The position numbers and the translations under genes are program-made. Source: an uncultured archaeon (lineage in GTDB: Archaea > Iainarchaeota > Iainarchaeia > Iainarchaeales > 0-14-0-20-30-16). From it: a stretch of 15,977 bases of DNA. Positions within the stretch are counted from its first letter, which is position 1, and the number at the start of each line of letters is the position of its first letter. The notes beneath the pieces were generated by a model that saw nothing but the letters and a program-made list of their open reading frames with translations, was not told the origin of the DNA and did not search any database. The stretch spans positions 1-15,977 of the forward strand of contig CAZMCX010000011.1 of assembly GCA_964565125.1 (NCBI GenBank), read 5' to 3'. This document shows, piece by piece, positions 1 through 15,977 of this stretch.

Positions 1-169
1 TTCGGATTAGATTACTTGTAAGAGAATTAATTTCTCTTTCCTTTTTTTTCTTTTTTTATTTCTGATAAGTGACAAAGTTTAACCATGTTTTATAGAATGC
101 CAAAGTCTTTCATGTTGTTTCTTTGTGTTGATTTGTTTTGCCTTTAGGTACAGCTTCTCTTTTGTCTAA

Positions 170-1999: not shown

Positions 2000-2004
2000 G
2001 TAAA

Positions 2005-2355
2005 TTACTCCAAATCTAGACTAATTTTAAGGGCCTCTTCAATTTTTAATAGTGTCTGTTTGTCTTCTATTGCCCCTAACTTTTTTATAAGTCTGTTTTT
2101 TATTGAAAAAGTATAAATGTGCGAACATAAAATAGAACTATCTTTTTCTAAACCTGAAATGTTTTTTGGAACAAAAACACAAGTAGGCAAATTTTCAGTT
2201 ATCTTGCTAGTTATTGCCAGAACTATTGTGTTTGGAGAATATGTATTTCCCACATCATTTTGAATTATTAAACAAGGACGAGTTTTGCCCATTTCAGAAC
2301 CAAATGCGGGATCAAATCTTGCTAAATAAATTTCTCCCCTTTTTATATCTACCAA
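2005..2355 (-). CDS. mazF: MazF/PemK-family endoribonuclease toxin
   Basis: 116 aa. IKRGEIYLARFDPAFGSEMGKTRPCLIIQND is the typical MazF/PemK N-terminal signature. The start is TTG, preceded by SD GGTGAT (2361-2366 on the + strand as atcacc). It overlaps the upstream antitoxin gene by 7 nt. Confidence 0.9.
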   Translation of the reverse strand: MVDIKRGEIYLARFDPAFGSEMGKTRPCLIIQNDVGNTYSPNTIVLAITSKITENLPTCVFVPKNISGLEKDSSILCSHIYTFSIKNRLIKKLGAIEDKQTLLKIEEALKISLDLE

Positions 2356-2600
2356 GTAGTATCACCTAAAGTAGACTCAAAATCTTTTGCAATCTCTGCG
2401 TGTAATTTAGAATATTTTTGATAATATTCCTTTAATTTATCTATTGTATCTTTTTTTTGTTCTAATTTTTCTATTATTACTTTTCCATTTTCTACTTTTA
2501 CTAATATGCTGTCTTTAGGCCTTATTCCAGTGTAATCTCTTATATTCTTTGGAATTGTTATTTGTCCCCTTTCTCCTACCACGCTTACATCAGCAACCAT
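2349..2600 (-). CDS. mazE: AbrB/SpoVT/MazE-type antitoxin (swapped-hairpin DNA-binding fold)
   Basis: GERGQITIPKNIRDYTGIRPKDSILVKVENGKVIIEKL is an AbrB/MazE-type looped-hinge motif. I prefer the ATG at 2600 (83 aa), because GGTGAT lies 3 nt upstream (2604-2609 as atcacc), over the GTG at 2618 used by the ORF track. An A/T-rich TATA-like tract lies at 2619-2635. Confidence 0.85.
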   Translation of the reverse strand: MVADVSVVGERGQITIPKNIRDYTGIRPKDSILVKVENGKVIIEKLEQKKDTIDKLKEYYQKYSKLHAEIAKDFESTLGDTTW

Positions 2601-2661
2601 TACATCACCAATACCCACTTTACATATATTTCATACTTGGAACCCTTTTTAAACAAATCTA

Positions 2662-4896
2662 TTATTGATTTGTATTTTCATACTCCTTATTAATTATATC
2701 ATAAATTTTCTTGGCCTTCTTCTCGCCTAGCTTGTCTATGTTCTGCAAAGAATCCTCGCTTGCATTAAATACTCTTTTTACACTTTTATACTTTTCTAAA
2801 AGCCTTTTGGCTAAGGTTGGTCCAACAAAAGGAAGGCCTTCTAGTATGCTTCTCTGGAGAATGTGATCTTCAACTCCTTTTTTGACTTTCCTGAGATGCA
2901 ATTCGTTCTCTTTCTTTGTCTGTTCCCTTTTTGCAACTAAAGTGATAAACTCTGCAACCTCTTTTGGGGTTTTTATGAAAAATATTGGAATCTTGAAGTC
3001 TGTGCTTAAAGAAAGTATGCTTCCTAAAACTGCGTTTTTGTTTATGTTTCTGCTCTCATAATCCAAAATGCCTTCTACAATAATTATTGGCTTTTCATAT
3101 GCAATGAGTTTTGATGCTTGGGTGAAAAGCCTGTTATCTAAAATTGAATTGAGGAAATCGTCTGATTTCTTTCGTTCTATTACTGCTTCTTGACCAACTA
3201 GGTAATCTCCAATGTCTAGAGTCTCAAATTCTAGATCTACTTCTTCTTTGTTGAAGAAGGATAATGCCTGTGCATTTCTCTCTCTGTGGTCAATTATAAT
3301 TGTTGGTTTAAGTTTTTTTTTTGAATCTATAGTTGTAAGTAAAGTAGTTTGTTTTATCTCTTTAGGTTTAACAATCCCGTTTATTTTGTCGTTCACAGAT
3401 TCTTTTTTTGAAAGCCTGTCTATTGTGGTCTCCATTTTCTTTTCTTTTTTCAGAGATGACCAGTAAAAAATTTCATCTTTTGTGTCTTTAGTAATTAAAA
3501 TATAGACTTTTCCACTTTTAAAACGCCCAGTTCTTCCTCGTCTTTGGATCATTCTTATCTCAGAGGGTACGGGCTCATAGAAGACTATAGTGTCTACTGC
3601 CGGAAGGTCAAGACCTTCTTCTGCAACCGAGGTAGCAAGTAATACATTGTATTTTCCGTCTTTGAAATCATCGATTATCTCTTTTTGTTCTTTTTGGTTC
3701 AAGCCTTTGTCATCTTCTTTATTTGCCTGGCCTACAAACCTCTTAACACTAAGCAAGGGATTTTTTTGTAAGATTGATTCAAGATGCTTTACGGAATCTC
3801 TGTAATGATTGAAAACAATTATTTTCTGTTTTGGATCTCGATTTAATTCAAATAAAACTATTTCTATGAGCTTTTGTAATTTTGGGTGATTTATGTCTGC
3901 TAAATTGAAGCCTTCAGTTAGGTAAATTGCTTTTTGGATTCTTTCATCTTTTTGCATCATTCCTGCTGATTTTGTGATGTCTTCTTTGAGTTTATGGAAA
4001 TATTCTTCAAGAGCTTGTACGCCCTGAGTTTCAAGCATAAGTGAAGCATGGTTTGTTTTCAATAATGCGGAAATATACATCATGGCCTGGTAATCTTTAC
4101 TTTCCTTTTTTTCTATCTGGGATACTTTTCTCTGTAACATTAGAATCTCGCTTTGGGTGCATTGGCTTCTTAGGGCAAATCCATATCTTTGAATATGGTG
4201 GATAACTTCTTTTGCATAACTATCTAATGAACTTTGGATGAGTTTGTATTGCTCGGGAAGCTCAACTTTTATCCACTGTACATTTACTGGGTTTGTGTAA
4301 GGTGCTATGTCTGCATCGGTTTTTCTTTTTAGTTCTATGTTTGTGAACCTTAGGTTGTCCATTATTGCTTTTATTTTGCTTTTTTCGTTTCCGGGTGATG
4401 CGGTTAGGCCTAATGTCTTACAGATAGTTTTTTTTGCTATGTCTACATAGGCATAAGCCCCCGCAGCTTTATGGGCTTCATCAAATATAATTAGGTCGAA
4501 AGCCCCTAATTCTTCTTTACTTAAACCTGAAAAAGTTTGGGGTGTGGCGCAAATAACTTCACAATTGCTTAGTTCTGTGCTTCTTTTTTTTGTTGAGATT
4601 GAGCCTGTGATAAGGCCTATTTCTGCTTTTAAAACAGAACTTAAAAATTCATAATGTTGGTTAACAAGTGGCTTGGTTGGTGCAAGAAACAGAATCTTGC
4701 CTTTTTTCTTTAGTAAAGTTTCAGCAATTACAAATAATGCAATAACTGTTTTTCCTAATCCGGTGGGCAAAACAATTAAAGTGCTTTCTTCGAGACCTTT
4801 TTCTGCAAGAGCAATCTGGTATTGCCTGTGTTTTATTATGTCTTTTTTCATTAGGGGGTGGTTGTAGTAGATACCCTCGAGATATTTTTCTAGCAT
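2662..4896 (-). CDS. hef: Hef: archaeal helicase-nuclease (SF2 helicase + ERCC4/XPF nuclease + (HhH)2)
   Basis: 744 aa. Helicase motifs are present: PTGLGKT (Walker A), FDEAHKA (DEAH), TASPG and QRRGRTGR (motif VI). The C-terminal ERCC4 nuclease carries IIIDHRE...IGDYLV...ERKKSDDF. A terminal tandem helix-hairpin-helix follows (LPFVGPTLAKRLL...LGEKKAKKIY). Confidence 0.95.
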   Translation of the reverse strand: MLEKYLEGIYYNHPLMKKDIIKHRQYQIALAEKGLEESTLIVLPTGLGKTVIALFVIAETLLKKKGKILFLAPTKPLVNQHYEFLSSVLKAEIGLITGSISTKKRSTELSNCEVICATPQTFSGLSKEELGAFDLIIFDEAHKAAGAYAYVDIAKKTICKTLGLTASPGNEKSKIKAIMDNLRFTNIELKRKTDADIAPYTNPVNVQWIKVELPEQYKLIQSSLDSYAKEVIHHIQRYGFALRSQCTQSEILMLQRKVSQIEKKESKDYQAMMYISALLKTNHASLMLETQGVQALEEYFHKLKEDITKSAGMMQKDERIQKAIYLTEGFNLADINHPKLQKLIEIVLFELNRDPKQKIIVFNHYRDSVKHLESILQKNPLLSVKRFVGQANKEDDKGLNQKEQKEIIDDFKDGKYNVLLATSVAEEGLDLPAVDTIVFYEPVPSEIRMIQRRGRTGRFKSGKVYILITKDTKDEIFYWSSLKKEKKMETTIDRLSKKESVNDKINGIVKPKEIKQTTLLTTIDSKKKLKPTIIIDHRERNAQALSFFNKEEVDLEFETLDIGDYLVGQEAVIERKKSDDFLNSILDNRLFTQASKLIAYEKPIIIVEGILDYESRNINKNAVLGSILSLSTDFKIPIFFIKTPKEVAEFITLVAKREQTKKENELHLRKVKKGVEDHILQRSILEGLPFVGPTLAKRLLEKYKSVKRVFNASEDSLQNIDKLGEKKAKKIYDIINKEYENTNQ

Positions 4897-4928
4897 ATTT
4901 ATATATATTGTAAATAACTAATAAATAT
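4897..4928. promoter_or_regulatory. 32-bp A/T-only divergent promoter spacer between hef and the 4929 gene; both genes probably leaderless
   Basis: The sequence is atttatatatattgtaaataactaataaatat. TATA-like tracts lie about 20-30 nt upstream of each start codon on the respective strands. No SD motif precedes either ATG. Confidence 0.5.
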
Positions 4929-5744
4929 ATGTTACAAGTGCCACCGGAATATTTGAAAACAAGGGGAAAAGGCTTATTTAAGACTTTAGAGTTTTCTGAT
5001 CATGTTTTAGGCCATAAAGACCCTTTTTTTAGAGACTGCGGACTTTTTGGTGCAAGAAAATTAATTTCTTGGGTTGGAGAACAGGGAAATAGGATAAATG
5101 AACTAATTCACTTGGTTGGTCCAAGAGAAGCAAGGCCTTTTTTGGACTTGCTTGCTACTGCAAAAGTTAGAGATAAACGCAGATTTTTGGAAAAATTAAG
5201 GCTTTTTATTCAGGATGACAGTACACGAGGTCTTAATAGGTCCAATAAGGTAATTGGGATTTTAGCAGGATATGGGTTTAGTGAAAATGGGCTAGCTGAA
5301 TGTCTTGGTGAGATTTCAATGGCAAACAAAGCAAGCGGTCCGGCTTTAGCAGAAGCCTATGAACAAGTTATAGATTTACTTGCTTATTATAAAGGTACTT
5401 TTAAAGGAGATGAAGCAGTTTATCCCTTGAAAATGGTTAGAACAATTTTTGCAATTTCCGGTGACCCTGAAACCCAAAGAAAAATATGCAAAAAGTATAT
5501 TGATTTAATATTTTCTAGTTCAAATCCAAAGGCTTGTTTACAAAAAGGAAAAAACTTTTTAGTAATACTTTTGAAATTATTAAAAGAAAAAAAATATGAT
5601 GCCATTGACAGAATGTTTAGGAATATCAAAGATCTTAAAACCTATGTTGACTTGACAAGTAAAATTGATGATGCTACTTTACAAACTGACTTTGCGAAAA
5701 TTTCAGAATATTTATTAACTGCCCGTGAAGTTGAATTTTCTTAA
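4929..5744 (+). CDS. Hypothetical protein, predicted all-helical, no recognisable motif
   Basis: 271-aa ORF filling the gap between hef and the MFS gene. Its stop TAA (5742-5744) overlaps the convergent MFS stop within the tetranucleotide TTAA. No family signature recognised by eye. Confidence 0.7.
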   Translation: MLQVPPEYLKTRGKGLFKTLEFSDHVLGHKDPFFRDCGLFGARKLISWVGEQGNRINELIHLVGPREARPFLDLLATAKVRDKRRFLEKLRLFIQDDSTRGLNRSNKVIGILAGYGFSENGLAECLGEISMANKASGPALAEAYEQVIDLLAYYKGTFKGDEAVYPLKMVRTIFAISGDPETQRKICKKYIDLIFSSSNPKACLQKGKNFLVILLKLLKEKKYDAIDRMFRNIKDLKTYVDLTSKIDDATLQTDFAKISEYLLTAREVEFS

Positions 5745-6925
5745 TATGGAACAATTACTTCTTTTATTTTTAAACTTATATAAAAAAATACCGCCATCAA
5801 AACAAACATTGTCAAAAATGCAAACTGGTTTGGTAAAAATAAAAGTACTATTGCTGGGATAAATTTTCCAAGCGCGGCGCCCAGATCTTTAGAAGTTGCA
5901 AAAATAGGGTAATACTTTTCTTCATCTAGTCTTTTTACTTGTTTGAAAAAGAAAGCCCCCTCTATTGGCTCGATGAATGAGGCGGCGATACTTGCAATTA
6001 CCACAAGAGTAAGCTGTAAGTAAATATTGTTTATGAAAAATAAAGCCAGTGAAATTAGACTTAATAAAAAAAATCCATACTTAAAGAATTTTCTGAATCC
6101 TAATTTTTCGGATGCCTTTCCAACAAAATATTCAAATATAATTAGTGGTATAACTAAAACTGCAATAAATACACTTACTGTGCCATTGCTTAATCCAGCT
6201 TTTATTATGAATAATGGCAGATAAATATAGACAAACCCCCACCAAACCTGTAAGCCCATTGAAATTAGATATGGAAGTTGTAATGTTTTGTCTTTTACAA
6301 AATATATCAGATTTAATAAAATATGTTTATCTAATCCATCTCTTTCTTTTTGTAAGGGGGAAATTTTTAAGATTAAGAATAATATTAATGCCATTGCATA
6401 AAATCCTGCTGCAGATAAAAATACAGATCGCAATCCATATTCAACCAAGAAAAATCCAGCAATTAACGGGCCTATTAACCATGCAAAATTGATTATACAA
6501 AACATTATTGACATTTGTCTGTTTAATTTTCCATCTTCAGAGTTGTCTCTAAACAAAATGTCGCTTGCGTTTACTCTTAGTATGGTATTTATAACTAATA
6601 CCAGATATACTGCCAAAAAGAAATATAAGTTTGTAATTATTAACAGGATCCCAAATCCGACAATTGAAATTAACAAGCTTACTATAATTATTTTTCTTTG
6701 GTTATATTTTTCTAAGATTGGAATTGCTAAAAGTGATGACCCAACAGAAACAATTACGAAAATACTGGAAATAAGACCAACTTCAGATTCAGATAAACCA
6801 AAACTAAATAGGTAAATCGCCCATATTGTTGTTATTGCAGCTAAGGCAAGCGATACAAAAAACCTTACAAATGCAAGCTCTGTACTTTTTGAGATTTGTA
6901 TATTTGCATAGTTTAGCTTTTGCAT
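5741..6925 (-). CDS. Major facilitator superfamily (MFS) transporter
   Basis: 394 aa, about 12 hydrophobic segments in a 6+6 layout with a central loop (KISPLQKERDGLDK). Composition and length are typical of MFS; the substrate cannot be inferred. Confidence 0.8.
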   Translation of the reverse strand: MQKLNYANIQISKSTELAFVRFFVSLALAAITTIWAIYLFSFGLSESEVGLISSIFVIVSVGSSLLAIPILEKYNQRKIIIVSLLISIVGFGILLIITNLYFFLAVYLVLVINTILRVNASDILFRDNSEDGKLNRQMSIMFCIINFAWLIGPLIAGFFLVEYGLRSVFLSAAGFYAMALILFLILKISPLQKERDGLDKHILLNLIYFVKDKTLQLPYLISMGLQVWWGFVYIYLPLFIIKAGLSNGTVSVFIAVLVIPLIIFEYFVGKASEKLGFRKFFKYGFFLLSLISLALFFINNIYLQLTLVVIASIAASFIEPIEGAFFFKQVKRLDEEKYYPIFATSKDLGAALGKFIPAIVLLFLPNQFAFLTMFVLMAVFFYISLKIKEVIVPY

Positions 6926-6978
6926 GATATAAGAAGATTATTGTTATTTATATTTTTTTGTACCAGTCTTTTACAAAA

Positions 6979-7020
6979 GGCAAAAAGCTTTCTTTGCCAT
7001 AGCAAATTGCTTTCTTGGCA
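6979..7020. repeat. Two tandem copies of a ~20-nt imperfect-palindromic motif (gcaaaNNgctttctt core)
   Basis: The two copies are ggcaaaaagctttctttgcc (6979-6998; stem GGCAAA/TTTGCC) and agcaaattgctttcttggca (7001-7020). The core gcaaaaagctttctt (6980-6994) recurs exactly at 7524-7538. Confidence 0.6.
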
Positions 7021-7120
7021 CAAGGCCACCGGTATAATCTTTGTTGCCTGGAAAAAGAAGAATCCCTTATGGCATTTATGCCATTATTTTTCTTTTGGTG
7101 AACCTATGCTTTTCTTTTTT

Positions 7121-7135
7121 TTAAAAAGAAAAGAA
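7121..7135 (-). terminator. Oligo-T tract immediately 3' of tRNA-Arg (archaeal-type terminator)
   Basis: The minus strand reads TTCTTTTCTTTTTAA directly after the discriminator base. Archaeal RNA polymerase is known to terminate at oligo-T runs. Confidence 0.5.
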
Positions 7136-7208
7136 TGGCCTCACGGGGATTTGAACCCCGGCCGGAGGCTCCGCAAGCCCCTATGCTATCCAACTGCACC
7201 ATGAGGTC
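7136..7208 (-). tRNA. tRNA-Arg (anticodon GCG), 73 nt, no intron, CCA not encoded
   Basis: Hand-folded from the reverse complement GACCTCATGGTGCAGTTGGATAGCATAGGGGCTTGCGGAGCCTCCGGCCGGGGTTCAAATCCCCGTGAGGCCA. D-arm is GTGC/GCAT. Anticodon stem is GGGGC/GCCTC with loop TTGCGGA. T-arm is CGGGG-TTCAAAT-CCCCG. The acceptor stem pairs 6 of 7 positions, with an A2:C71 mismatch. Confidence 0.9.
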
Positions 7209-7267
7209 AATAATATATATCTTTATTCCAATAATATAATAAGTTTAATTTTTTGGGAGAGATATTG

Positions 7268-7480
7268 ATGGGGTATAAAATAGAACAAGATTATAAGAAT
7301 TGTATCGGGTGTGGGGCTTGTGTGGCAATTTGTCCTAAGTTTTGGGTTATGGAAGGAGTAAAAGCAAAGCCAAAGAAAACAGAATTTGATGAAAAAGACT
7401 TAAAGTGCAACAAAGAAGTAGCAGAATCCTGTCCGGCAAATGTAATACATCTTTTTAAGGATAAGAAGAAGATAATTTAG
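7268..7480 (+). CDS. Small mono-cluster [4Fe-4S]/[3Fe-4S] ferredoxin
   Basis: CIGCGACVAICP plus a distal SCP gives the CxxCxxC...CP ligand pattern. The extra Cys pair (ICP and KCN) matches the disulfide pair of Pyrococcus/Thermotoga-type ferredoxins. I prefer the ATG at 7268 (70 aa), preceded by GGGAGAG (7255-7261), over the TTG at 7253. Confidence 0.85.
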   Translation: MGYKIEQDYKNCIGCGACVAICPKFWVMEGVKAKPKKTEFDEKDLKCNKEVAESCPANVIHLFKDKKKII

Positions 7481-7555
7481 CGTTCCGCTAAATTACTTCT
7501 GCCCCAGAAACTTTTTGCGTTAAGCAAAAAGCTTTCTTGAGAAGAAGATAATTTA
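7464..7555 (+). repeat. 16-nt exact direct repeat (agaagaagataattta at 7464-7479 and 7540-7555) flanking a 60-nt segment with two strong hairpins
   Basis: Hairpin 1 spans 7473-7495: taatttagcg-ttc-cgctaaatta, 10 bp, covering the ferredoxin stop codon. Hairpin 2 spans 7506-7537: agaaactttttgc-gttaa-gcaaaaagctttct, 13 bp with one bulged C. The first repeat copy encodes the ferredoxin C-terminus (KKII-stop). The second copy would encode the same end and overlaps the TATA-like tract upstream of the alkD-like gene. Confidence 0.7.
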
Positions 7556-7570
7556 AGATAACTGATTTTT

Positions 7571-8272
7571 ATGCTTGAACAAATTTTTAAAGAAACTGAA
7601 AGATTAAAAGATCCGGAGAGGGCAAAACAACTTAAAAGATTCTTTAAAACTGGCAAAGGTGAATATGGCGAGGGAGACGAATTCTTAGGTGGAATTACTG
7701 TTCCCCAATTAAGAATCCTTGCAAAAAAATATGGGAGTATAGAGTTACAAGAACTCCAGAATCTTATATGTAGTAAGTATCATGAATATCGTCAATTGGC
7801 TCTGATAATATTAGTCAACAAGTACAAAAAAGTCAAGCAAGAACGAGAAAAAAAGGAAATAGTTGACTTTTATATTAAGAATCGAAAGTATGTAAATAAT
7901 TGGGATTTAGTTGATTGTTCTGCGCCATATATTACTGGAGACTACTTTTTTGATAAAGACAAAAAAGTTTTGTATAATTTTGCAAAATCAAAAAACTTGT
8001 GGGAAAAAAGAATTGCAATAATTTCTACTTTTGGATTTATAAAACAAAATTCTTTTGAAGACTCTTTAAAAATTGCGGAGATTCTTTTGGAAGATAAACA
8101 CGATTTAATACATAAGGCAGTGGGTTGGATGTTAAGGGAAATAGGGACCCGGGACAGGGCTGTTGAAAAAAGGTTTTTGGATAAGCACATAAGAAAAATG
8201 CCGAGAACTATGTTAAGATATGCGATTGAAAAATTTCCTGAAAAAGAAAGATTATATTATTTGAAGTTATAA
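7571..8272 (+). CDS. alkD: DNA alkylation repair protein, AlkD/AlkC-like HEAT-repeat DNA glycosylase family
   Basis: 233 aa. NNWDLVDCSAPYITGDYF, LWEKRIAIISTFGFIKQ and HDLIHKAVGWMLREIG match the conserved blocks of the DNA_alkylation family as I recall Bacillus AlkD (WWDSVD..., W..R.A.., IQKAIGWVLRE). Confidence 0.85.
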   Translation: MLEQIFKETERLKDPERAKQLKRFFKTGKGEYGEGDEFLGGITVPQLRILAKKYGSIELQELQNLICSKYHEYRQLALIILVNKYKKVKQEREKKEIVDFYIKNRKYVNNWDLVDCSAPYITGDYFFDKDKKVLYNFAKSKNLWEKRIAIISTFGFIKQNSFEDSLKIAEILLEDKHDLIHKAVGWMLREIGTRDRAVEKRFLDKHIRKMPRTMLRYAIEKFPEKERLYYLKL

Positions 8273-8418
8273 TCTTGCAGGCTGACAAAATTTATCTTGT
8301 TTTTCTTTGTGTAGTTGTGATCTGTCTTTCCTTTTGGTGCTTTTTGTCTTTAACATCTTTAATCCTGACTATAACAGACCTATTTTCCTACTTGCTGTTC
8401 TTTTCCCTATTTGTCATT

Positions 8419-9300
8419 TTACAACTTGTCTTTGATATAATTTACTATCTCATCTTCATTGAACATGTTTCCAATTGTTGACCTTAATTCTTTTGCGCCT
8501 CTGAAGCTGTGGAAAAATTGGATTGCTTTTTGTTTTAAGTCATTTGGATTTGTTAAGTTGTATTTTTTGAAAAGTTTATAATATTCGAGGAAAATCTTTT
8601 TTGGGTTTGCGTCTTTTTTTGAAAAGACCCACGGATTTTTCATGGCTTCTCTCCCGATCATGAATCCATTACAGTATTTTTCTTTTAGGTATTTCTTTCC
8701 TTGTGCGATGGTTTGGATATCCCCATTTCCAATAATAAAGTTATCAGTAGTTTCTTTAAGTTCTTTTATTATTTCCCAATCTGCAGTTCCAGAGTACCTT
8801 TGCTCTGAAGTTCGTCCGTGTATTATTATTACATCTACAAATGAAGAAATCTTTTCAACTAGCTTTTTTGTGCTTTCTTTGTTTTTTAGAATTCTTATTT
8901 TTACTGATTTTGTAAAATCAAAACTTTGGATTGATTTTAAAATTTCAATTAATGTATCTTGATTTGTAAGAAGCCTTGATCCAGCCCCGATTTTTATAAT
9001 CTTTGGCATTGGGCACCCCGCATTGATGTCAAGCCATTTTATTTTTTCAAAAGTATTTATTCTCTCAATAGCAAGTGGATATTCTTCAGGCTTTGTGCCG
9101 AACAGTTGTATTCCGACTTTTTTTTCTTTTGTGAAATCAATGAATTTGTGTATGTTCTTATCTTTTTGATGTATTATTTGTGTTGTATTAATTAAGGGTG
9201 CAAAAGTAAACTCTGCACCAGATTTTTTACAGAGTTCTCTAAATGGCCTGTTTGTGTATTCTGAAATCGGTGCCAAATAAATCTTGGGAAATGTTGTCAT
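8419..9300 (-). CDS. dus: tRNA-dihydrouridine synthase (Dus family, TIM-barrel flavoenzyme)
   Basis: 293 aa. LAPISEYTNRPFRELC, INAGCPMPKIIKIGAGSRLL (catalytic Cys loop), IIIHGRTSEQRYSGTADWEII and the GNGDI motif are typical Dus signatures. Confidence 0.85.
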   Translation of the reverse strand: MTTFPKIYLAPISEYTNRPFRELCKKSGAEFTFAPLINTTQIIHQKDKNIHKFIDFTKEKKVGIQLFGTKPEEYPLAIERINTFEKIKWLDINAGCPMPKIIKIGAGSRLLTNQDTLIEILKSIQSFDFTKSVKIRILKNKESTKKLVEKISSFVDVIIIHGRTSEQRYSGTADWEIIKELKETTDNFIIGNGDIQTIAQGKKYLKEKYCNGFMIGREAMKNPWVFSKKDANPKKIFLEYYKLFKKYNLTNPNDLKQKAIQFFHSFRGAKELRSTIGNMFNEDEIVNYIKDKL

Positions 9301-9352
9301 AATTACCTTTAAATACGAAAAGGTTAATAAAGCTCAATGTTCCTCTTTAATA

Positions 9353-10024
9353 ATGTGTTTTACTCCAGCAATATCTTTATCAACTGCAATATTTGAGTTT
9401 GCAGTAGCAACTTTTATTTTATTCTATTTTAGGAAGGCGACCTTACATAAATCTGTAGTGATATTTCTTTATGTCCTTGGTTTGTACCAATTAACAGAAT
9501 TCTTTTTGTGCACTACCTCAAATCCGTTTTTGTGGGCTAAGATTGGATTTATAACCTATTCATTCCTGCCTGCTTTGGGCCTGTATTATGCTTTAGACTA
9601 CTTAAGAAAGAAAGTTTACTTAATCCCAATTTTTTTGGTCCCGGTTGCGATTACAATATTTGTTTTAATTAAAACCAATTTCGTTAGTATGGCGGCTTGT
9701 GGAAACTTTTTTGTAACTACAAGAAATATATTTATGGGTCACTGGCTTGGAGTAGTATATTTAGTATATTATTTTGGATTTGTTGTATTAATTGCTGTGT
9801 TTTTGGTTCTACATGCAATAAAAAAACAGGGAACAAAGAGGAGGATAGATATTATTGTGCTTATTGCTCTTGTGCTATCCCTTTTGCCGCCAATAGTTTT
9901 GATATTTATTCTTCCGTCTTTGAAGATAATGTTCCCATCAATATATTGTGAGTTTGCTGTGCTTTTTGCATTTGCTATCCTCTTGGGCTTTTGTTTGGAT
10001 TCAAAACAAAAGACAAAAAAATAA
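9353..10024 (+). CDS. Polytopic integral membrane protein, unknown function
   Basis: There are about 7 hydrophobic segments. I prefer the ATG at 9353 (223 aa), because the TTG at 9284 would overlap the divergent dus start. No family motif recognised. Confidence 0.65.
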   Translation: MCFTPAISLSTAIFEFAVATFILFYFRKATLHKSVVIFLYVLGLYQLTEFFLCTTSNPFLWAKIGFITYSFLPALGLYYALDYLRKKVYLIPIFLVPVAITIFVLIKTNFVSMAACGNFFVTTRNIFMGHWLGVVYLVYYFGFVVLIAVFLVLHAIKKQGTKRRIDIIVLIALVLSLLPPIVLIFILPSLKIMFPSIYCEFAVLFAFAILLGFCLDSKQKTKK

Positions 10025-10044
10025 ATAACTTTAAAAGATTTGCG

Positions 10045-10473
10045 ATGTTAAAAAAAATAATGCAAAATAAAAGATGCCATTATGGTAACTCGAGAGATTT
10101 TATTAGCTCTCCAGTTGGTAATGAGGTTTCTGCAGTTTTCTTTGGCGTAGAAGATAAAATAATCAATAATTCTAAATTTCTTTATAACTCTCTTAAACAA
10201 GGATTGAAGAAAGAAAAATTTACAATTCTAGGGGAATCTTCATATAGCTTTAAACCGCAGGGCTACACGCTTGTATTTCTGCTAGGGGAATCTCATGTTG
10301 CAATACATACCTATCCTGAGTTTAATTCTATTACTTTTCAGATTTATTCTTGTAGGGGCCCAGAAGATGGCTTTATAACATTTAAACATTTTGTTGATAA
10401 AGTAAAACCAAAGAAAGTAAAGATGACTGATTTTAGAGTTGTAGTTGATCCTAGGTTTAAACAAATTACTTAA
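10045..10473 (+). CDS. speH: S-adenosylmethionine decarboxylase proenzyme, pyruvoyl-dependent class 1 (SpeH/SpeD-like)
   Basis: FKPQGYTLVFLLGESHVAIHTYPEFNSITFQIYSC matches the F.P.G.T....L.ESH..IHT.PE self-cleavage motif, with the Glu-Ser bond as the processing site. I prefer the ATG at 10045 (142 aa), just after the upstream gene's stop. A related pyruvoyl arginine decarboxylase paralogue cannot be excluded. Confidence 0.75.
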   Translation: MLKKIMQNKRCHYGNSRDFISSPVGNEVSAVFFGVEDKIINNSKFLYNSLKQGLKKEKFTILGESSYSFKPQGYTLVFLLGESHVAIHTYPEFNSITFQIYSCRGPEDGFITFKHFVDKVKPKKVKMTDFRVVVDPRFKQIT

Positions 10474-11098
10474 TTTTTTTAATTGCTATTGCATCTTGTA
10501 ACTTTGCTGTTGTGAATCTTTTGTCTTTCATAATTTCTCTTGGGATTTTTAATACTGGGTAAATTAATAATATTCCCCCGCTTCTAAGCGAATGTGAAAG
10601 TTTTCTAATAACTAGGTCTGGCATTACTGTATATTTTAAGCCACCCAGATTAGAAACTATGATATCATATGCTTGTCTTGGAAGGAATAACTCTGCAGAT
10701 TCATAAATAATTTCATCTACTAATCCTTTTTTGTATTTTTCGTTAAGTTCTGGATGTTCATAAATATCTAATGCGGTTGTGTAAATCCGTTTTCCTAAAT
10801 CTTTTTTGAGTGATGCTAAGAACTGGCCTTTTCCAGCACCAACATCTAAAATTTTTATTTTTCGTCTTACTGCTTTTAGTGTTTCAATATATCTGTTAAA
10901 ATCAAAATCAGAACCATTTGGCAAAGCAAACCGATAAGGGGATTGTGAATAAACCATTTCAAGCCTTGTGTCTCCTGATTTTATTTCTTTTATGTGATGT
11001 TCGAATTTGTGTTTTTCTTTGGGGTTTATTATCCGCTTTTGTAATTCTTCCTGTGCTTTTTTTACTTCTGAATTAATATATTGTTTATCTTTCAGCAT
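10466..11098 (-). CDS. Class I SAM-dependent methyltransferase, substrate unknown
   Basis: KILDVGAGKGQF is motif I (the GxGxG loop). ALDIY and YDIIVSN serve as the downstream acidic and motif IV-like strands. I prefer the ATG at 11098 (210 aa), 4 nt after the MetAP stop. The 3' end overlaps the convergent speH-like gene by 8 nt. Confidence 0.8.
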   Translation of the reverse strand: MLKDKQYINSEVKKAQEELQKRIINPKEKHKFEHHIKEIKSGDTRLEMVYSQSPYRFALPNGSDFDFNRYIETLKAVRRKIKILDVGAGKGQFLASLKKDLGKRIYTTALDIYEHPELNEKYKKGLVDEIIYESAELFLPRQAYDIIVSNLGGLKYTVMPDLVIRKLSHSLRSGGILLIYPVLKIPREIMKDKRFTTAKLQDAIAIKKIK

Positions 11099-11102
11099 AA
11101 AG

Positions 11103-11996
11103 TCACCTGGCAAATATATGAATATTATTATTTTCACCTATATATATTGTTGCTTCTGCTTGTGAAATCAAACAACCTTCTCTGTCATCTAATTGTGGTG
11201 CTGGTCGTATGCACCCCTCTTTTACTAATAATGCCAAAGTAATTTTCTTGCTTGTTGGGTTTAAATCTTTTCCAATCCATCTTTCAGAGAATGGCAACCC
11301 CTTGCTGTTCTCTAACTCTTTAAGAATTTTTCGCCCTATTTGGTTTCTTGTTTGTTTTTCTGTGGGAAAATATATACTACAAAAAGACGCATTTTTTACA
11401 AACCCGTTTCCTGTGCTCGCAAATGGTTCTATTGCGTAAATTCTATTTGTGCCTAAAGTTGAGTTGTCTTTTTGAGAAATGTTTGGAATGCTTTTTCCAG
11501 CATGTAAACTATAAGCGGAAATTTCATGGCCCATAAGATTTGAAATTGGCTTGAATCCAAATGAAATAATTTCTTTTTCAATAATTGTGCCGATTTCTCC
11601 AACTTTTGAATCTTTTTTGTTTTTCTTAATATAATCTAATGCTTTTTCCAGGGCGTTTTTGCTTGCATTAACTAATTTCTCATTTTTTCCAGATAGATCT
11701 ATTGTAAACGCGCCATCTATTGTATAACCATTTGACTGCGCACCAATATCCACTTTAATTAAGTCGTCTTTTCCCCAAACTTCTTTGGAATCAGATAGCG
11801 GGGAATAATGTGCCGCAGAATTGTTTCTGGACAGGTTCACAGGAAATGCAACTTCTGCATACTTTCTAATCTCGGACTCTATTTTCTCTGCACAGTCTAG
11901 AATAGATTTGCCAAATTTAATTTCTTTTAAGGCAACCTTTTTTGCGGAAAGCCAAGCTTTATTTGCTTTTTCCAAGTTTTCAAGAATCATGTTCAC
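11103..11996 (-). CDS. map: Methionine aminopeptidase, type 2 (archaeal)
   Basis: FPVNLSRNNSAAHYSP, KVDIGAQSNGYTIDGAFT, GHEISAYSLHAGKSIP and YAIEPFASTGNG match the MetAP2 pita-bread metal-ligand blocks. GGTG lies directly after the polB stop. The start is either the GTG at 11996 or the ATG at 11990. Confidence 0.92.
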   Translation of the reverse strand: MNMILENLEKANKAWLSAKKVALKEIKFGKSILDCAEKIESEIRKYAEVAFPVNLSRNNSAAHYSPLSDSKEVWGKDDLIKVDIGAQSNGYTIDGAFTIDLSGKNEKLVNASKNALEKALDYIKKNKKDSKVGEIGTIIEKEIISFGFKPISNLMGHEISAYSLHAGKSIPNISQKDNSTLGTNRIYAIEPFASTGNGFVKNASFCSIYFPTEKQTRNQIGRKILKELENSKGLPFSERWIGKDLNPTSKKITLALLVKEGCIRPAPQLDDREGCLISQAEATIYIGENNNIHIFAR

Positions 11997-12005
11997 ATTT
12001 ACACC

Positions 12006-14354
12006 CTAAAATAATTTCTGTTGCTTTGTGCTTTCAATAAGCTTTTCTTTTGTAAATCCTAACTGCTCTACTAACGGAATTACTGCTGGAAGCACCTGGT
12101 TGTTAATATAATATTCTTCATCATAAGAATTGTCTTTTACAAACTGTTCTAACTCTGCTTTCTCTGAAATTGTAATTCCGTTTTTTGTGATAATGTAATT
12201 TACAATAGTCCCCGGCCTCATTAAAACCCCCCTTCTCTCTGCTTTTCTTGCTGCAGAAACATGTGGGGAAATGTTGTTGTATTTATTTAATGGTTTTGTA
12301 ATTTTTGAAGAAAGTACAAGATCCTCTTTTTTTACTTTGTGGGCAATTAACAAAGAAATAGTTTCTCTTATTTTTTTAATTGCTTTTTCTAGATTCCCTT
12401 CTTTTAAAATTATTTCTAAAACATCTTTTTGTAGGCTTTTTGCAACATTGCTCCAATCCCTGCGTACAAATTCAAATCCAACAATTTTTAGGTTTCCTTC
12501 AAAGTCGATTAGTGCATATCTTTTTTTTGCACCAACGTTTTCTGACTTCTTAGAAACAAACAAACCTCTTTTGTAAAAACCATCAAGAGTTAATTTTATT
12601 TCACCAGGAAGTGTGGAATTTATTTTTTTCAAAAATGTTTCTACTTCGCTTTGTTTTCTATAAATTAAGAATGCACTATCTGTATCAGAATAAATTACTT
12701 TTAATGCGTTTTTTTCTGCTTGTTCACAAACCATTTTTATATACTCTTGAGAATATGCAACTGTTGATCTTGCACACTCTAAACAATACCATCTTGCTCG
12801 GGGGTATGCTAAGTATCCATAAAAACTTGCTAATAATCTTTTTAAGCTCCATTGTCTTGCAAATAAAACATCTTTTTTGCTTTTGTCTGCTTTTTGCATT
12901 TCTGTTTTTACTTTCATTCTTTTGTCTAAAATTTCTTTTATAATTCCGGGAATTATTGCTTTAACTTCTAAATTGAATTTGTCTTTTGTGGGGCTTATAA
13001 CAAGTTTCTTTCCCGGAACATTTAATGTTTCTGGAGATATATTATGTGTAATAATAATTGATGGGTGTAGTGATCTGAAATCGATTACTGCAATATTTTC
13101 ATAAATATTTGGCTCTGGCTGTTTTACATATCCGCCCACATAAGTAATATCTGCTCTGTCTCCAATTATCTCCCCACTTGGCTTTTTGGGGATAAACTTT
13201 TTCTCCTTTGCATAATAATACATTATTATTGATTCGATCATATTGCTTGTGGGAAGCCTTATTGTATCTTGTAATGTTCTGCGTATTATTTTTGAAAGTT
13301 CTGTGAAAGTAAGAAGATATTTTTCGCCTAACTTGTAAGTTGCTTTTGAATCATCTAAATTGTATTCAAATAAACGATTTCGTTTTTCAATATTTTCCCA
13401 TAATTCAGGAATTTCTGTATATTCTAGGTCTATTTTCTCTTTTTCTAAAAGGGTTTCATAAGCAGTCGTTAAATCTAATTTGTTTAAACTTATGCTTCCT
13501 AATCTTGCAAGATAGGCAATTATTTTATATACGTCTACGTGCTGTATTCCGGTTGTGTAAGAAATTTTGCCCATACTTGATTTTCGGATTTTTGGTTTTA
13601 AATAAATCCCTAAGTCAATATCGAATTCTTTTGCTCGATTGTAAATTACCGGGATGTCAAAGTTGTCCCCATTATAAGTAAAAATAAAATCAAAATTGTT
13701 TAAAATTTCTAGAGTTCTTTCGATCATTTCTTTTTCATCTTTACAAAGTTCTAAGTTTTTGTTATTTTCTTTTGTGTCTCTGTAACTTAAAATTGTTTTA
13801 ATTTTATCTGAATAAATTGAAATAGAAATTATTTCGTTTTTTAACATATCTTTGTTGTCGCTTGTTGTTTCAATATCTAATGCACAGCATAATGGCGCAA
13901 ATTCTTTTTTGGTTTCTTTGAATTCTAAACCCTCTTTTGAAGTTATTTCATAATGTGCAAGAGGGGTGATCTGTTTGTCTATTATGTATCTCTGGTCAAA
14001 AGGAATATCATAATCATGTTTTGCTATAAAGGACTCTAATGTCTTTACATTGCCCCGCATTTCCATTAGCTGGGTTGTGTTTTTGAAACATAATTTATAA
14101 ATAGTATTTTTTTCATATTTTTTTTGTTTTTCATAACTTAGGAAAAGATTTTTGTTGTTTGCTAAAGCTTTTTCAAATTTCTTTTCGTTGTCAACTTCTA
14201 CATAAAAATATGGCTTAAAATAAGGGTCTTCTATTATTTGTTTAACTTTTCCGCTATTTATACAGATGTTTATTATGGATTCATTCTTTTCGTTGTTTTC
14301 ATAGAATATATCTAAAATTGTTCCCGAGTACTGCTTCTTTAATTTTTTACCCAT
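12006..14354 (-). CDS. polB: Family B DNA polymerase (PolB), no intein
   Basis: Exo I ALDIETT, Exo II YNGDNFDIP, Exo III EYNLDDSKATY, motif A DFRSLHPSII, motif B KRLLASFYGYLAY...RWYCLECA, motif C VIYSDTDS, and KKRYAL. I prefer the ATG at 14354 (782 aa), preceded by GAAGGT (14361-14366 as accttc). The 37 extra codons in the ORF track read through the A/T promoter region. Confidence 0.95.
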   Translation of the reverse strand: MGKKLKKQYSGTILDIFYENNEKNESIINICINSGKVKQIIEDPYFKPYFYVEVDNEKKFEKALANNKNLFLSYEKQKKYEKNTIYKLCFKNTTQLMEMRGNVKTLESFIAKHDYDIPFDQRYIIDKQITPLAHYEITSKEGLEFKETKKEFAPLCCALDIETTSDNKDMLKNEIISISIYSDKIKTILSYRDTKENNKNLELCKDEKEMIERTLEILNNFDFIFTYNGDNFDIPVIYNRAKEFDIDLGIYLKPKIRKSSMGKISYTTGIQHVDVYKIIAYLARLGSISLNKLDLTTAYETLLEKEKIDLEYTEIPELWENIEKRNRLFEYNLDDSKATYKLGEKYLLTFTELSKIIRRTLQDTIRLPTSNMIESIIMYYYAKEKKFIPKKPSGEIIGDRADITYVGGYVKQPEPNIYENIAVIDFRSLHPSIIITHNISPETLNVPGKKLVISPTKDKFNLEVKAIIPGIIKEILDKRMKVKTEMQKADKSKKDVLFARQWSLKRLLASFYGYLAYPRARWYCLECARSTVAYSQEYIKMVCEQAEKNALKVIYSDTDSAFLIYRKQSEVETFLKKINSTLPGEIKLTLDGFYKRGLFVSKKSENVGAKKRYALIDFEGNLKIVGFEFVRRDWSNVAKSLQKDVLEIILKEGNLEKAIKKIRETISLLIAHKVKKEDLVLSSKITKPLNKYNNISPHVSAARKAERRGVLMRPGTIVNYIITKNGITISEKAELEQFVKDNSYDEEYYINNQVLPAVIPLVEQLGFTKEKLIESTKQQKLF

Positions 14355-14453
14355 AGAAATACCTTCGAGTTGTTGTTCTATATGAATTACAGAGTATAAT
14401 AATATATTTATATATATTCGGATGTTTACATATATGGTTGAGGTGAAATAGAT
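14355..14453. promoter_or_regulatory. Divergent promoter region between polB and the 14454 gene
   Basis: A/T-rich TATA-like tracts (aataatatatttatatatatt, about 14396-14418). SD GAGGTGA (14440-14446) lies 7 nt upstream of the ATG at 14454. SD GAAGGT on the minus strand lies 6 nt upstream of the polB ATG. Confidence 0.55.
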
Positions 14454-14864
14454 ATGGTCGAACAAACTCTGGGAAATAGTGCGGAGCTTAAAGCTCTAAA
14501 TACTACTGTTATGCTTCTTTCTCAGAAAATGGCCTATTTGGTAAGAAATGAAAAAATTCTGAGTAAAAATATCTTAATTCTTAATGAAAAAATAAACAAA
14601 GTTGCAGAAAAATCCATTACTGTGGGCGGATCTTCCACGGATTCTGCCCAAATGGAAGAAATTAATGTTCAAGTTGTTGAATTATATGATAAACAAAAAA
14701 GCATAAGACAAGAAATGGAGTCTTTAAGGACATCTATAGATAACTTGAAAGAGGTATTTGTTACAAAAGAAGAACTTCAGGAATTAAAATATATAATTGA
14801 CACAATAAACCCGTTGGAGTTTGTTACTTATCAGCAATTAAAAGATTTGCTTAATAAAAAGTGA
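14454..14864 (+). CDS. Hypothetical coiled-coil protein
   Basis: 136 aa with an excellent SD (GAGGTGA). Heptad-like Leu/Ile/Glu/Lys-rich segments flank a short Gly/Ser linker (VGGSSTDS). No family recognised. Confidence 0.75.
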   Translation: MVEQTLGNSAELKALNTTVMLLSQKMAYLVRNEKILSKNILILNEKINKVAEKSITVGGSSTDSAQMEEINVQVVELYDKQKSIRQEMESLRTSIDNLKEVFVTKEELQELKYIIDTINPLEFVTYQQLKDLLNKK

Positions 14865-15133
14865 AAACTGTCAATAACCAACTAATAAATTAGTTGGCTT
14901 GTTCTGACAGGAACAAGGGCAACAATTTGACTACAGAAAGAGGAAACAAAAACATGGAAACAAAAACTACGAGAACAGAGCTACAAGAACCTACAGATGC
15001 TTCACTAGTCTGTAGCACTTCAGCAGAACTGTTAAATGCAACGAGTTTAGAAAACATTGAAAACATCAGTGATAACTCTATGCTTTGTTCTCATTCTGGA
15101 AGTGAGTATAACTTGAACGAAGGTTTAGCCAGT
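14865..15133 (+). ncRNA. Candidate structured non-coding RNA (omega-RNA-like scaffold) upstream of the IscB/IsrB-like ORF; alternatively a disordered N-terminal protein extension
   Basis: The position is analogous to IscB-associated omega-RNAs, which lie immediately 5' of the PLMP-domain start. Hairpins occur at 14878-14917, 14991-15015 (ctacag/ctgtag) and 15090-15106. An 11-bp long-range complement pairs gagaacagagc (14971-14981) with gctttgttctc (15082-15092, one G:U). Counter-evidence: the region is stop-free in the ORF frame for 80 codons, and GAGG lies 10 nt upstream of the ATG at 14954. Confidence 0.3.
14878..14917 (+). other. Two back-to-back perfect hairpins just downstream of the coiled-coil gene and upstream of the IscB-like ORF
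   Basis: The first is ccaactaat-aa-attagttgg (14878-14897, 9-bp arms). It is followed immediately by cttgttc-tgacag-gaacaag (14898-14917, 7-bp stem, 6-nt loop). Neither is followed by a T-run. Confidence 0.7.
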
Positions 15134-15394
15134 ATGTCTGGAAGAATATTTGTTTTAAGTTTTACAGGAAAGCCATTAACACCTTGTAAACCGGGCAAAG
15201 CAAGAAAGTTAATTTGTGGAGGGGTAGCAAAAGTAGTTTGGAACAAGTTTGGAGAATTTGGAATACAAATGTTAATTCCAACAAGAAGAGCTTGTAGATT
15301 TGATAATAGAAAAAGAGATGGATTTATTGCACCATCACAACTGATGATGGTTCAAAGCAGATTAAAAGCAATACAAGAACTTTTCAACTATTGA
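15134..15394 (+). pseudogene. IscB/IsrB-like (RRXRR / PLMP-domain) OMEGA-family nuclease, N-terminal fragment: PLMP domain fused directly to the RF.NR.R..PS segment, with no RuvC-I
   Basis: MSGRIFVLSFTGKPLTPCKPGKARKLICGGVAKVVWNKFGEFGIQML matches the recalled PLMP-domain consensus (vfVl...GkPLMPc.parAR.LL..GkA.vv...PFtIQL), which in IscB begins at the protein N-terminus. RRACRFDNRKRDGFIAPSQL matches the recalled RF.NR.r..gWL.PS block. GAAGGT lies 10 nt upstream of the ATG at 15134. The ORF ends in TGA at 15392-15394. The ORF track extends it upstream to a TTG at 14894. Confidence 0.6.
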
Positions 15395-15908
15395 AGTTGG
15401 TAAAAATATGATTAAAGCATTTATTATTGGAAAAGTTGGTAGAGATAATTATATTACTTTTGAAGGATTTGAAACAGGACAGGCAAGAGAAAAAAGAGAA
15501 TTAAAAAAGTCTTCAAAGAAAGCTTTAGAAACTTTTAACTCTCATTGTGTAGACAGCTTTTCAATAGCTTCTGAATTATCAAATGCAGAACCAAATTTTA
15601 ATATTAAAATTGTTGACGACACTTACAGACCAACAAGAAGAAAGTTACATGATACTCAGCCAAAGAAAGGAAATATAAGAAAAAAATATTCAACAGGAAA
15701 TTTTAAAGGAATAAGAAAGGGAACAATCTGCGAGTTCGGACAGATTGTTGGTGGAACTAAAAATAATGTCTGGATTAGAAATTCAGATAACAAAAGGATT
15801 GGTAAAGATATTAAGAAAATTAGTTGGTTATCTCATAATTTTAAACTAAAGGAGGGCTCAATTCCCCCAACCAATAAATTGGGTGGTATCCTTGAGCAAG
15901 TTTTATGA
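15366..15908 (+). pseudogene. IscB/IsrB-like nuclease, C-terminal fragment in a different frame: candidate RuvC-II Glu region, RuvC-III H..D, and a TID-like C-terminal domain; no HNH
   Basis: This frame is open from 15366, with the first ATG at 15408. STIEVGKN (candidate RuvC-II Glu) lies upstream of that ATG. SHCVDSFSIAS resembles the RuvC-III H..DA motif. RPTRRKLHDTQPKKGNIRKKYSTGNFKGIRKGTICEF...VWIRNSDNKRIGKDIKKISWL resembles the IscB C-terminal target-interaction domain pattern (basic stretch, GF..gD.V, G.v.vR.sG, i....l.ll). No Cys-pair or HNH motif is present. Confidence 0.6.
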
Positions 15909-15977
15909 AAACAAGATCCATAGCACTATTAATCTTTTTTCTGTTTTTGTTTATATCTTTCTCGTTTTCTCTAGATA
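15905..15977 (+). CDS. 5' end of a secreted or membrane protein (signal-peptide-like N-terminus), running off the window
   Basis: The ATG at 15905 overlaps the upstream TGA in an ATGA junction. Translation is MKTRSIALLIFFLFLFISFSFSLD: a basic n-region, a hydrophobic core and a small-residue c-region. Only 24 codons are visible. Confidence 0.45.
   Translation, partial: MKTRSIALLIFFLFLFISFSFSLD

Follow-up and report, generated by a model that had tools for sequence, protein, structure and literature searches.

The window analysed here is a stretch of 15,977 nucleotides (nt) from an uncultured archaeon of the Iainarchaeota (contig CAZMCX010000011.1, positions 1 to 15,977), and the subject of this work is a leader near its end, which lies directly upstream of the codons for a PLMP domain. 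An earlier note, made from the letters alone, had placed this leader at 14865 to 15133 and offered two readings of it, either the omega RNA of an IscB system or a disordered N-terminal extension of the PLMP protein. We consider it highly probable that the leader is the omega RNA gene of an IsrB nickase, that in its archaeal clade this gene is also translated through into IsrB, and that the copy in the window is a dead relic. The two readings had been presented as mutually exclusive, but they hold together, since the IsrB frame starts inside the RNA gene. The position of the guide RNA upstream of the PLMP start was given correctly, but the protein is IsrB, which has no HNH domain, and not IscB; the leader does not end at 15133 either, as the RNA runs past this point to about 15141. 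The RNA family, the nickase and the transposon are of known kinds, while the open reading frame (ORF) through the scaffold is a variant which we did not find described in the literature searched (the wording of Altae-Tran et al. 2021 was not covered).

The Rfam model HEARO (RF02033) matches 14870-15112 over all of its 211 positions (model positions 1-211) with 73.1 bits and an E-value of 2e-13. Homologous loci were collected by peptide patterns inside the RuvC and bridge-helix region, 103 in total, and the leader was not used as query. In 98 of these 103 loci the leader was found by nhmmer, mostly at full length and with its start at the equivalent of window position 14870, and the window leader had the second-best score among the 98. 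The covariation and frame tests were made on a MAFFT alignment of 64 non-redundant leaders, which was not fitted to structure. From these leaders RNAalifold predicted 43 pairs, with compensatory double changes in 39. Addition of P1, SL2 and the pseudoknot gave a structure of 57 pairs in 11 helices, which was 91.8% paired, compared to 35-45% when the 3' partners were slid. The 57 pairs had a covariation score of 0.593; the slid controls did not exceed 0.105, and none of 500 shuffles reached the score of the real pairs. Changes on both sides were seen in 47 of the 57 pairs. Helices 1 and 2, in the guide-adaptor region, covary. The pseudoknot, helix 4 (14934-14938 with 15094-15098), was 90.9% paired with compensatory changes in four of five pairs, and helices 5-10 were 85-99.5% paired, with compensatory changes in all 11 pairs of the long stem. 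SL2 is perfect in the window; in the MAFFT alignment, which has many gaps at this place, its outer four pairs reached only 53% pairing.

Two conserved 3' hairpins lie outside the Rfam model. The penultimate one (15113-15128) folds in 58 of 64 loci, and the terminal one (15129-15141) has a helix that is 99.6% paired, with three of its four pairs covarying, and a loop, UAUGU, which contains the ATG at 15134. These hairpins, which carry the RNA to about 15141, fit the report by Meers et al. that RF02033 comes without the downstream elements (10.1101/2023.03.14.532601). The 280-nt stretch folds better than 200 of 200 dinucleotide shuffles (z = -2.76). Most of the pairings listed in the earlier note were recovered: the two abutting perfect hairpins at 14878-14897 and 14898-14917, of 8 base pairs (bp) each, the hairpin at 14991-15015, also of 8 bp, and the 11-bp pairing of 14971-14981 with 15082-15092, which consists of 10 Watson-Crick pairs and one G-U and covaries. 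The hairpin claimed at 15090-15106 is present but weak (-3.1 kcal/mol), and it was rejected as a part of the structure because it shows no covariation above shuffles and shares bases with the pseudoknot strand and with the long stem, which does covary. The omega RNA reading is borne out by the HEARO match, by where the leader lies, by the covarying pairs and by a 5' end that falls on the transposon end, and by these comparisons 14870-15141 is the intact-looking scaffold of an IsrB-type omega RNA of the HEARO family. By analogy with the characterised family, an RNA of this kind would be expressed, bind the nuclease and guide its nicking.

The same bases form an open frame. As the earlier note had counted, 80 stop-free codons in the frame of the ATG at 15134 lead back to a TAG at 14891, and the other two frames have 8 stops each; a frame this long had been roughly estimated to arise by chance in well below 1 percent of cases, and 0.18% of mononucleotide shuffles were in fact open as long. 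The GAGG (14940-14943) lies 10 nt before the ATG at 14954, as described. The single Lys reported for the 60-residue peptide was also found, compared to 11% Lys in the protein of the upstream gene and 14% in ORF2. The called homologous proteins, 403-408 amino acids (aa) long, include the extension, and the frame was therefore tested directly on DNA and not on called genes. From the conserved ACUACG to the PLMP domain, the 64 leaders contained no in-frame stops, versus 373 and 201 in the other two frames. Measured to the PLMP anchor, RNA anchors beyond the linker lay at 13 different distances (119-158 nt), and 94 of 96 loci fell into one class modulo 3, whereas distances from both P1 strands, which lie upstream of the linker ATG, were spread over all three classes. 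Variable loops within the ORF had lengths of 12, 30, 33, 36, 39, 45 and 48 nt and of 17, 20, 23, 26, 29 and 32 nt, respectively. Three sequences with a change of 1-2 nt had a second, compensating indel inside the ORF, whereas segments upstream of the ATG varied freely. It was also observed that the leaders of L027 and L037 (alignment columns about 145-175) carry a 4-nt insertion after the start codon and a 2-nt insertion about 25 nt further on; together these restore the frame, and they therefore look like a compensated frameshift inside the omega RNA.

The unpaired A-rich linker is 19-50 nt long among the loci, and it holds 61 ATGs in total, each of them in the frame of the PLMP domain. The linker start is an ATG in 61 of 64 loci and an in-frame TTG or GTG in two, while L077 has an in-frame ATG a few bases downstream. 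A tetramer resembling a Shine-Dalgarno (SD) sequence was found 2-14 nt upstream of the linker ATG in only 34 of 64 loci and thus lends weak support. At the PLMP domain itself, the proximal ATG is replaced in eight loci, by ATA in four, TTA in two and TTG in two, and the Borrarchaeota copies have no PLMP-proximal ATG and a frame which is open upstream. In a mostly archaeal clade, comprising metagenome-assembled genomes (MAGs) of Nanoarchaeota, Woesearchaeota, Thermoplasmata and Borrarchaeota, the alignments show that the IsrB frame starts at the linker AUG inside the scaffold and runs on, without loss of phase, across the 3'-terminal ~190 nt of the scaffold and into the PLMP codons. Judged by this pattern, the stop-free frame is no accident but the real 5' coding region of this family, kept only for phase and openness. 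The N-terminal extension is in this way upheld for the family, with frame, start codon and indel phase all conserved.

The codons of the leader did not behave as those of a protein domain. Per-site diversity at codon positions 1, 2 and 3 was 0.332, 0.353 and 0.315 in the leader, compared to 0.278, 0.180 and 0.493 in the adjacent PLMP codons; with no codon periodicity in the leader, the ~60-residue extension appears to be shaped by the RNA. Amino-acid replacements were radical and tracked the stem covariation (e.g., PTD...VCS versus LRN...IPN). When a full-length homologue was modelled with AlphaFold2, residues 1-65 had no secondary structure and a predicted local distance difference test (pLDDT) score of 26-29, where PLMP and RuvC reached 70-90, and the alignment of DtIsrB, the IsrB of Desulfovirgula thermocuniculi, to the full-length homologue starts only at residue 58-64. 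Given the missing periodicity, the stem-tracking replacements, the low pLDDT and the late start of the DtIsrB alignment, the extension is best read as a translated but unconstrained, disordered tail. A purely protein-coding low-complexity N-terminal domain with incidental hairpins would agree with the conserved ORF and start codon, but we regard it as next to impossible and as already refuted by the covariation in the alignment, since the covariance model matches at full length, 47 of the 57 pairs change on both sides, third positions show no excess variation, and the radical replacements follow stem pairing. Covariation and codon periodicity had been proposed in the earlier note as the means to tell the two readings apart, with stops or indels in homologues counting against coding. 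The homologues show covarying helices and no codon periodicity, yet no stops and no frame-breaking indels, and with both kinds of pattern in the same leaders these discriminators do not separate the two readings.

A bacterial control was set up with 16 HEARO loci, to be compared with about 100 mostly archaeal loci. In the bacteria, the frame upstream of the PLMP domain was open for only 5-44 codons, and none of the 16 loci reached 50. The bacterial locus L095 has six in-frame stops in the leader and GGGAGG with an ATG right at the PLMP domain, which is the start layout described for DtIsrB; published accounts (PMC9755519, PMC9581776) treat the omega RNA as a 5' untranslated region whose terminal hairpin holds the SD. 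Among Thermoplasmata and Woesearchaeota MAGs, a further archaeal HEARO clade was noticed, i.e., L134 (G043:C72), L139 (G043:C117) and L135 (G044:C29). These three loci scored 90-105 bits, above the Rfam threshold, and their frame is open for 59-66 codons with an ATG into the PLMP domain. We lean towards the wider view that archaeal IsrB/IscB lineages generally have an obligatorily translated scaffold, in which the start codon, once behind the omega RNA, now lies in the linker, each transcript serves as guide or message, and a ~60-residue tail is set by pairing rules.

Two alternatives accept the RNA but give the frame a lesser role. According to the first, the leader has no role beyond that of an omega RNA, its open frame results incidentally from strong RNA conservation and from extension by gene callers, and translation starts at the ATG at 15134. 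The leader without codon periodicity would suit this view, as would three further points: that ATG is conserved in 55 of 64 loci; some bacterial relatives, L095 for instance, have an SD and an ATG at the PLMP domain and stops in the leader; and the omega RNA has been published as an untranslated region. It is nevertheless very improbable and already strongly disfavoured: length changes beyond the linker ATG keep the phase (multiples of 3, or compensated), which those before it do not, every linker ATG is in frame and in-frame stops are absent where the other frames have 201-373, no start codon is present at the PLMP domain in eight loci or in any Borrarchaeota copy, and gene callers had no part in an analysis made on DNA. 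According to the second alternative, translation of the leader is only regulatory, through unfolding of the scaffold or coupling, and working IsrB is made mainly from the PLMP-proximal AUG, with the long form as a minor or unstable by-product. We find this improbable, since an upstream ORF need not stay in phase with PLMP across 13 length variants and the loci without a start codon near the PLMP domain keep intact bodies; the conserved AUG, shown in the loop of a covarying terminal hairpin, the predicted disorder of an extension without protein-level constraint, and the fact that DtIsrB works without such a tail (PMC9581776) are nevertheless points in its favour.

Several observations weigh against the leader being both omega RNA gene and start of the message. 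The covariance-model check suggested in the earlier note gave a HEARO match at full length, but its 73.1 bits are below the Rfam curated gathering score of 83. A gathering score is a database cut-off and no biological property. All 14 relatives scanned with the HEARO model scored 64-77 bits, so that the whole clade is below the threshold, and Meers et al. took HEARO matches from 15 bits up if position and orientation fitted (10.1101/2023.03.14.532601). The PLMP-proximal ATG is conserved in most of the loci and located in a hairpin loop, and internal initiation may therefore also occur. As the loci are phylogenetically related, there are fewer independent events than the counts of sequences and cells would suggest. 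MAGs supplied the taxon labels, and a few open-frame loci were binned as bacteria (L093, L098, L103, L104). Actual transcription and translation of the leader are deduced from the sequence pattern. Lastly, the window protein is broken, and nothing in the window can therefore act as a nickase.

The protein family was recognised as IsrB by its PLMP, split RuvC and TI domains and by the lack of an HNH segment in the homologues. PF14239 (RRXRR) matches residues 5-46 of the 15134 frame with an E-value of 1.9e-11, and the PLMP domain starts inside the last RNA hairpin; the window PLMP is 83-91% identical to homologues. With the full-length protein P0001 as query, the best solved relative was DtIsrB (8DMB, E 2.6e-46), and IscB structures matched the N-terminal part only. 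Compared with the closest locus, L010, two deletions were found in the window copy. Deletion 1 took away 186 nt (62 aa) with RuvC-I and its catalytic Asp (LGIDxGTKFEG) and the bridge helix's Arg-rich start, and its junction is in frame, with AGAAGA microhomology. Deletion 2 took away 80 nt with RuvC-II and its catalytic Glu (AIEDVKF) and caused a frameshift; it lies between imperfect direct repeats GAAYTTYTYAA. RuvC-III (SHCVDSF) alone remains in the window, where full-length homologues have all three parts of the split RuvC. With RuvC-I and RuvC-II lost, the window copy is an IsrB pseudogene and no working member; its nuclease gene is dead as read from the DNA, the locus is thus a fossil, and the extension can only head a truncated product of 146 residues. 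ORF2 is 86-88% identical to P0001 residues 226-408, and an exhaustive search for its protein relatives yielded little that the word-indexed search had not. No second IsrB copy was found in the 82%-complete window genome, which together with the dead nuclease makes the leader an orphaned omega RNA gene heading a truncated ORF. Two other explanations of the broken frame were rejected. Alignment to L010 and to the full-length proteins contradicts a single-base frameshift in the T run near 15381: it shows the 80-nt deletion between direct repeats. TIEV is part of NFSTIEVGKN, which lies downstream of the RuvC-II motif that was lost. An alternative genetic code for the TGA at 15392 was discarded because the downstream text is in another frame and the homologues show the missing segment.

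The limits of the transposon were given by a genome of the same genus, G001, which has an empty site. There, ...CTTAATAAAAAGTGAAAGCC is followed immediately by ATGAAAGC..., with the upstream flank ...GTGAAAGCC joined directly to ATGA. The element consequently comprises exactly 14870-15904 and was inserted between N and ATGA without duplication. Its 5' terminus is GTCA, and homology with other loci begins at 14870, the 5' end of the omega RNA scaffold. The element sits between two co-oriented host genes, of which the upstream one (136 aa) ends 5 nt before the scaffold, in keeping with the orientation bias in Meers et al. (10.1101/2023.03.14.532601). Directly 3' of the element, ATGA was found in 39 of 45 distinct loci, ATGG in five and ACGA in one; ATGA and ATGG match the known target-adjacent motifs (TAMs) of IsrB, NTGA, TTGA and ATGG (PMC9581776). 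In the window, the ATGA at 15905-15908 is host DNA; its ATG starts the 442-aa signal-peptide gene that follows, and its TGA ends the IsrB frame. This overlap of stop and start was rejected as a sign of operon coupling, as the ATGA is host target DNA and already stands in the G001 empty site. Among the 3' ends of the clade (L004-L106), the IsrB stop is usually the TGA of a host ATGA as well, and the sequence beyond often resembles the start of a host gene; the elements thus tend to sit directly before host start codons, behind a co-oriented gene. SL1 resembles a hairpin at the opposite end of the element. This distal hairpin (15867-15886) folds, and visual inspection of the end alignment suggests that its stem covaries among the loci; by analogy with related elements it is probably a recognition hairpin for a Y1 transposase (PMC4810608). 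No significant link of the element ends to other repeats in the genome was found with blastn-short.

In the window genome a single gene for an IS200/IS605 Y1 transposase (TnpA) was found, G000:C9:15925-16272. It has an intact frame of 144 residues (PF01797, E 1e-41) and lies on a different contig from the element, and its product might in principle act in trans and mobilise elements of this type. The doubly deleted element was also seen, 99.7% identical, on one metagenome contig, L107, with the same downstream flank but an unrelated upstream flank (L107:1-163). This upstream flank breaks exactly at the position of 14870, the GTCA terminus, and has no match in the window genome, and L107 could be either a rearrangement at the transposon end or an assembly chimera.

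At least 11 contigs, which come from several samples, carry this dead form at this site, and their identity of 99.5-100% marks them as one population. The element was not found in 38 of the 39 relatives searched. P0092 (283 aa, on a contig of 3368 nt), from another lineage of this IsrB family, has an independent in-frame deletion of ~125 residues, from after the RuvC-I Asp to before RuvC-III. Internal deletion thus appears, from the sequences at hand, to be a common decay route for IsrB genes. One could also imagine the window copy as a miniaturised, nuclease-dead IsrB which still uses its omega RNA for RNA-guided DNA binding or for regulation of the neighbouring genes, in analogy to TnpB-derived repressors. 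The omega RNA is intact (second-best of the 98 in nhmmer, 73 bits against 64-77 in relatives), the doubly deleted form recurs at one site in several samples, and the ORF2 stop overlaps the start of the next gene, all of which such a function could account for. Yet we find it hardly credible: nearly identical contigs of one population are no independent retention, the gene is split by the frameshift and has lost the RuvC-I strands of the fold core, and the ATGA overlap is the transposon target motif that was there before insertion. The different internal deletion in the P0092 lineage is what random decay predicts, and the element was not found in 38 of the 39 relatives, with an empty site in G001.

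For working members of the family, a mechanism can be proposed in which the omega RNA would be transcribed together with ~16-20 nt of the upstream flank as guide, probably by read-through from the upstream gene, as the characterised family suggests. The RNA would fold into P1, two adaptor hairpins, the pseudoknot, the long stem with its inner hairpins and the two 3' hairpins, and would direct IsrB to nick the empty allele, where a guide match is followed by ATGA, thereby favouring re-copying of the element. Ribosomes would presumably also translate through the scaffold and so produce an IsrB with a disordered N-terminal tail of ~60 residues, whose sequence would be set by RNA pairing and not by protein function. 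Since a single molecule cannot serve as folded guide and as message under translation at the same time, binding of IsrB to its own leader could repress translation.

Among known systems, the DtIsrB-omega RNA complex (PDB 8DMB; Hirano et al. 2022, PMC9581776) is like the present one in its HNH-less protein with PLMP, split RuvC and TI domains, in a structured RNA of ~270-280 nt directly 5' of the gene with the guide taken from the transposon flank, and in its adaptor hairpins, pseudoknot, tandem 3' hairpins beside the PLMP codons and NTGA/ATGG-type TAM. It differs in that its ORF starts only behind the RNA and its SD lies in the terminal hairpin, whereas the ORF of the archaeal clade starts from an AUG in the scaffold linker, reads ~190 nt of RNA and has ~60 extra residues; the window's own IsrB is, moreover, broken. 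The HEARO RNA (RF02033; Weinberg et al.; Altae-Tran et al. 2021) is what is now called the omega RNA of IscB and IsrB. The HEARO or IscB omega RNA (OgeuIscB structures 7XHT, 7UTN) shares the architecture over 211 positions and the place upstream of an RRXRR/PLMP gene on the same strand, whereas the window RNA is below the gathering score, has two extra 3' hairpins and is partnered by IsrB instead of an HNH-containing IscB. ISC1 transposons (Kapitonov, Makarova and Koonin 2016, PMC4810608) likewise have a 5'-GTCA, insertion between N and ATGA without target duplication, imperfect subterminal hairpins and a non-autonomous build with no tnpA inside, but the window element is in an archaeal (DPANN) host and has been cut to 1035 bp by its two internal deletions. 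In TnpB systems, too, the scaffold of the omega RNA or right-end RNA (reRNA) shares DNA with the nuclease coding sequence in the same orientation, within an IS200/IS605-family element (10.1101/2023.03.14.532601). That overlap is at the 3' end of the ORF and in folded protein domains; in the window family it is at the 5' end, includes the start codon, and concerns codons without protein-level constraint. In bacteria, dual-function RNAs such as VcdRP and AzuCR (PMC8672173; 10.1101/2021.04.27.441574) are also transcript regions that are both functional RNA and coding sequence, but they encode separate small proteins and base-pair with mRNAs, whereas here the product would be an in-frame N-terminal extension of the RNA's own protein partner.

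With the RNA family, the nickase and the transposon known and the copy dead, this is ordinary as an annotation result, and the family-level pattern is less so. About 190 nt of highly structured scaffold appear to be kept in phase and stop-free, with a conserved start codon but without selection at the amino-acid level, across a broad and mostly archaeal clade, which offers a clean natural case of RNA-structure selection and frame-only selection on the same bases. The pattern would explain the odd 60-residue N-terminus of archaeal "RRXRR proteins" in databases, and for archaeal IsrB/IscB used as tools it would mean that the annotated N-terminus is dictated by RNA. Default Rfam thresholds miss the omega RNAs of this archaeal clade. 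Competition of translation and guide formation on one transcript becomes testable. If the wider view on archaeal lineages is true, one domain of life would have its own way to begin translation behind a large structured RNA, with a switch or feedback between the production of guide and nuclease built into it.

Table 1. Coordinates of the omega RNA, the IsrB remnants and the transposon in the window.
Feature	Position	Strand	Remarks
Predicted omega RNA guide segment	14850..14869	+	Host flank CTTAATAAAAAGTGAAAACT; overlaps stop codon of the upstream 136-aa gene; 20-nt guide length taken from DtIsrB (PMC9581776)
ISC1/IsrB-type non-autonomous IS200/IS605-family element	14870..15904	+	1035 bp after two internal deletions; from G001 empty site and homology limits
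Omega RNA scaffold (HEARO RNA)	14870..15141	+	RF02033 match, conserved 3' hairpins, covariation
Guide-adaptor region	14870..14931	+	P1 14870-14874 with 14927-14931 encloses SL1 14878-14897 and SL2 14898-14917
Pseudoknot 5' strand CAGAA	14934..14938	+	Pairs with 15094-15098 (UUCUG); = [[[[[ ]]]]] of HEARO consensus
Unpaired A-rich linker	14939..14965	+	SD-like GAGG 14940-14943; conserved start ATG 14954-14956
Scaffold core, wholly inside ORF	14971..15092	+	Long stem 14971-14981 with 15082-15092
Core hairpins	14987-15021 (inner stem 14991-14997 with 15009-15015), 15022-15040, 15043-15078 (inner stem 15056-15059 with 15067-15070)	+	
Two 3' hairpins	15113..15141	+	15113-15118 with 15123-15128, GAAG loop; 15129-15132 with 15138-15141
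ORF1, 146 aa	14954..15394	+	60-aa extension, PLMP (from 15134), C-terminal bridge-helix part; ends at out-of-frame TGA
Deletion 1 junction	15283..15286	+	186 nt lost
Deletion 2 junction	15375..15387	+	80 nt lost
ORF2, 166 aa, IsrB back end	15408..15908	+	RuvC-III and TAM-interacting (TI) domain; frame open from 15366 (KNFSTIEVGKN...)
Imperfect subterminal hairpin	15867..15886	+	Distal element end, inside IsrB C-terminal codons
ATGA host target motif, likely TAM	15905..15908	+	Present in G001 empty site

A few observations were made outside the element. The contig G000:C45 overlaps with its positions 1-55 the last 55 bases of the window (15923-15977) and continues the downstream signal-peptide gene, and the two contigs are therefore adjacent in the genome. 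A hairpin at 7496-7544 gave a spurious match to a microRNA family; it lies near a tRNA gene, which was found at 7136-7208 on the - strand (Rfam tRNA, 53 bits).

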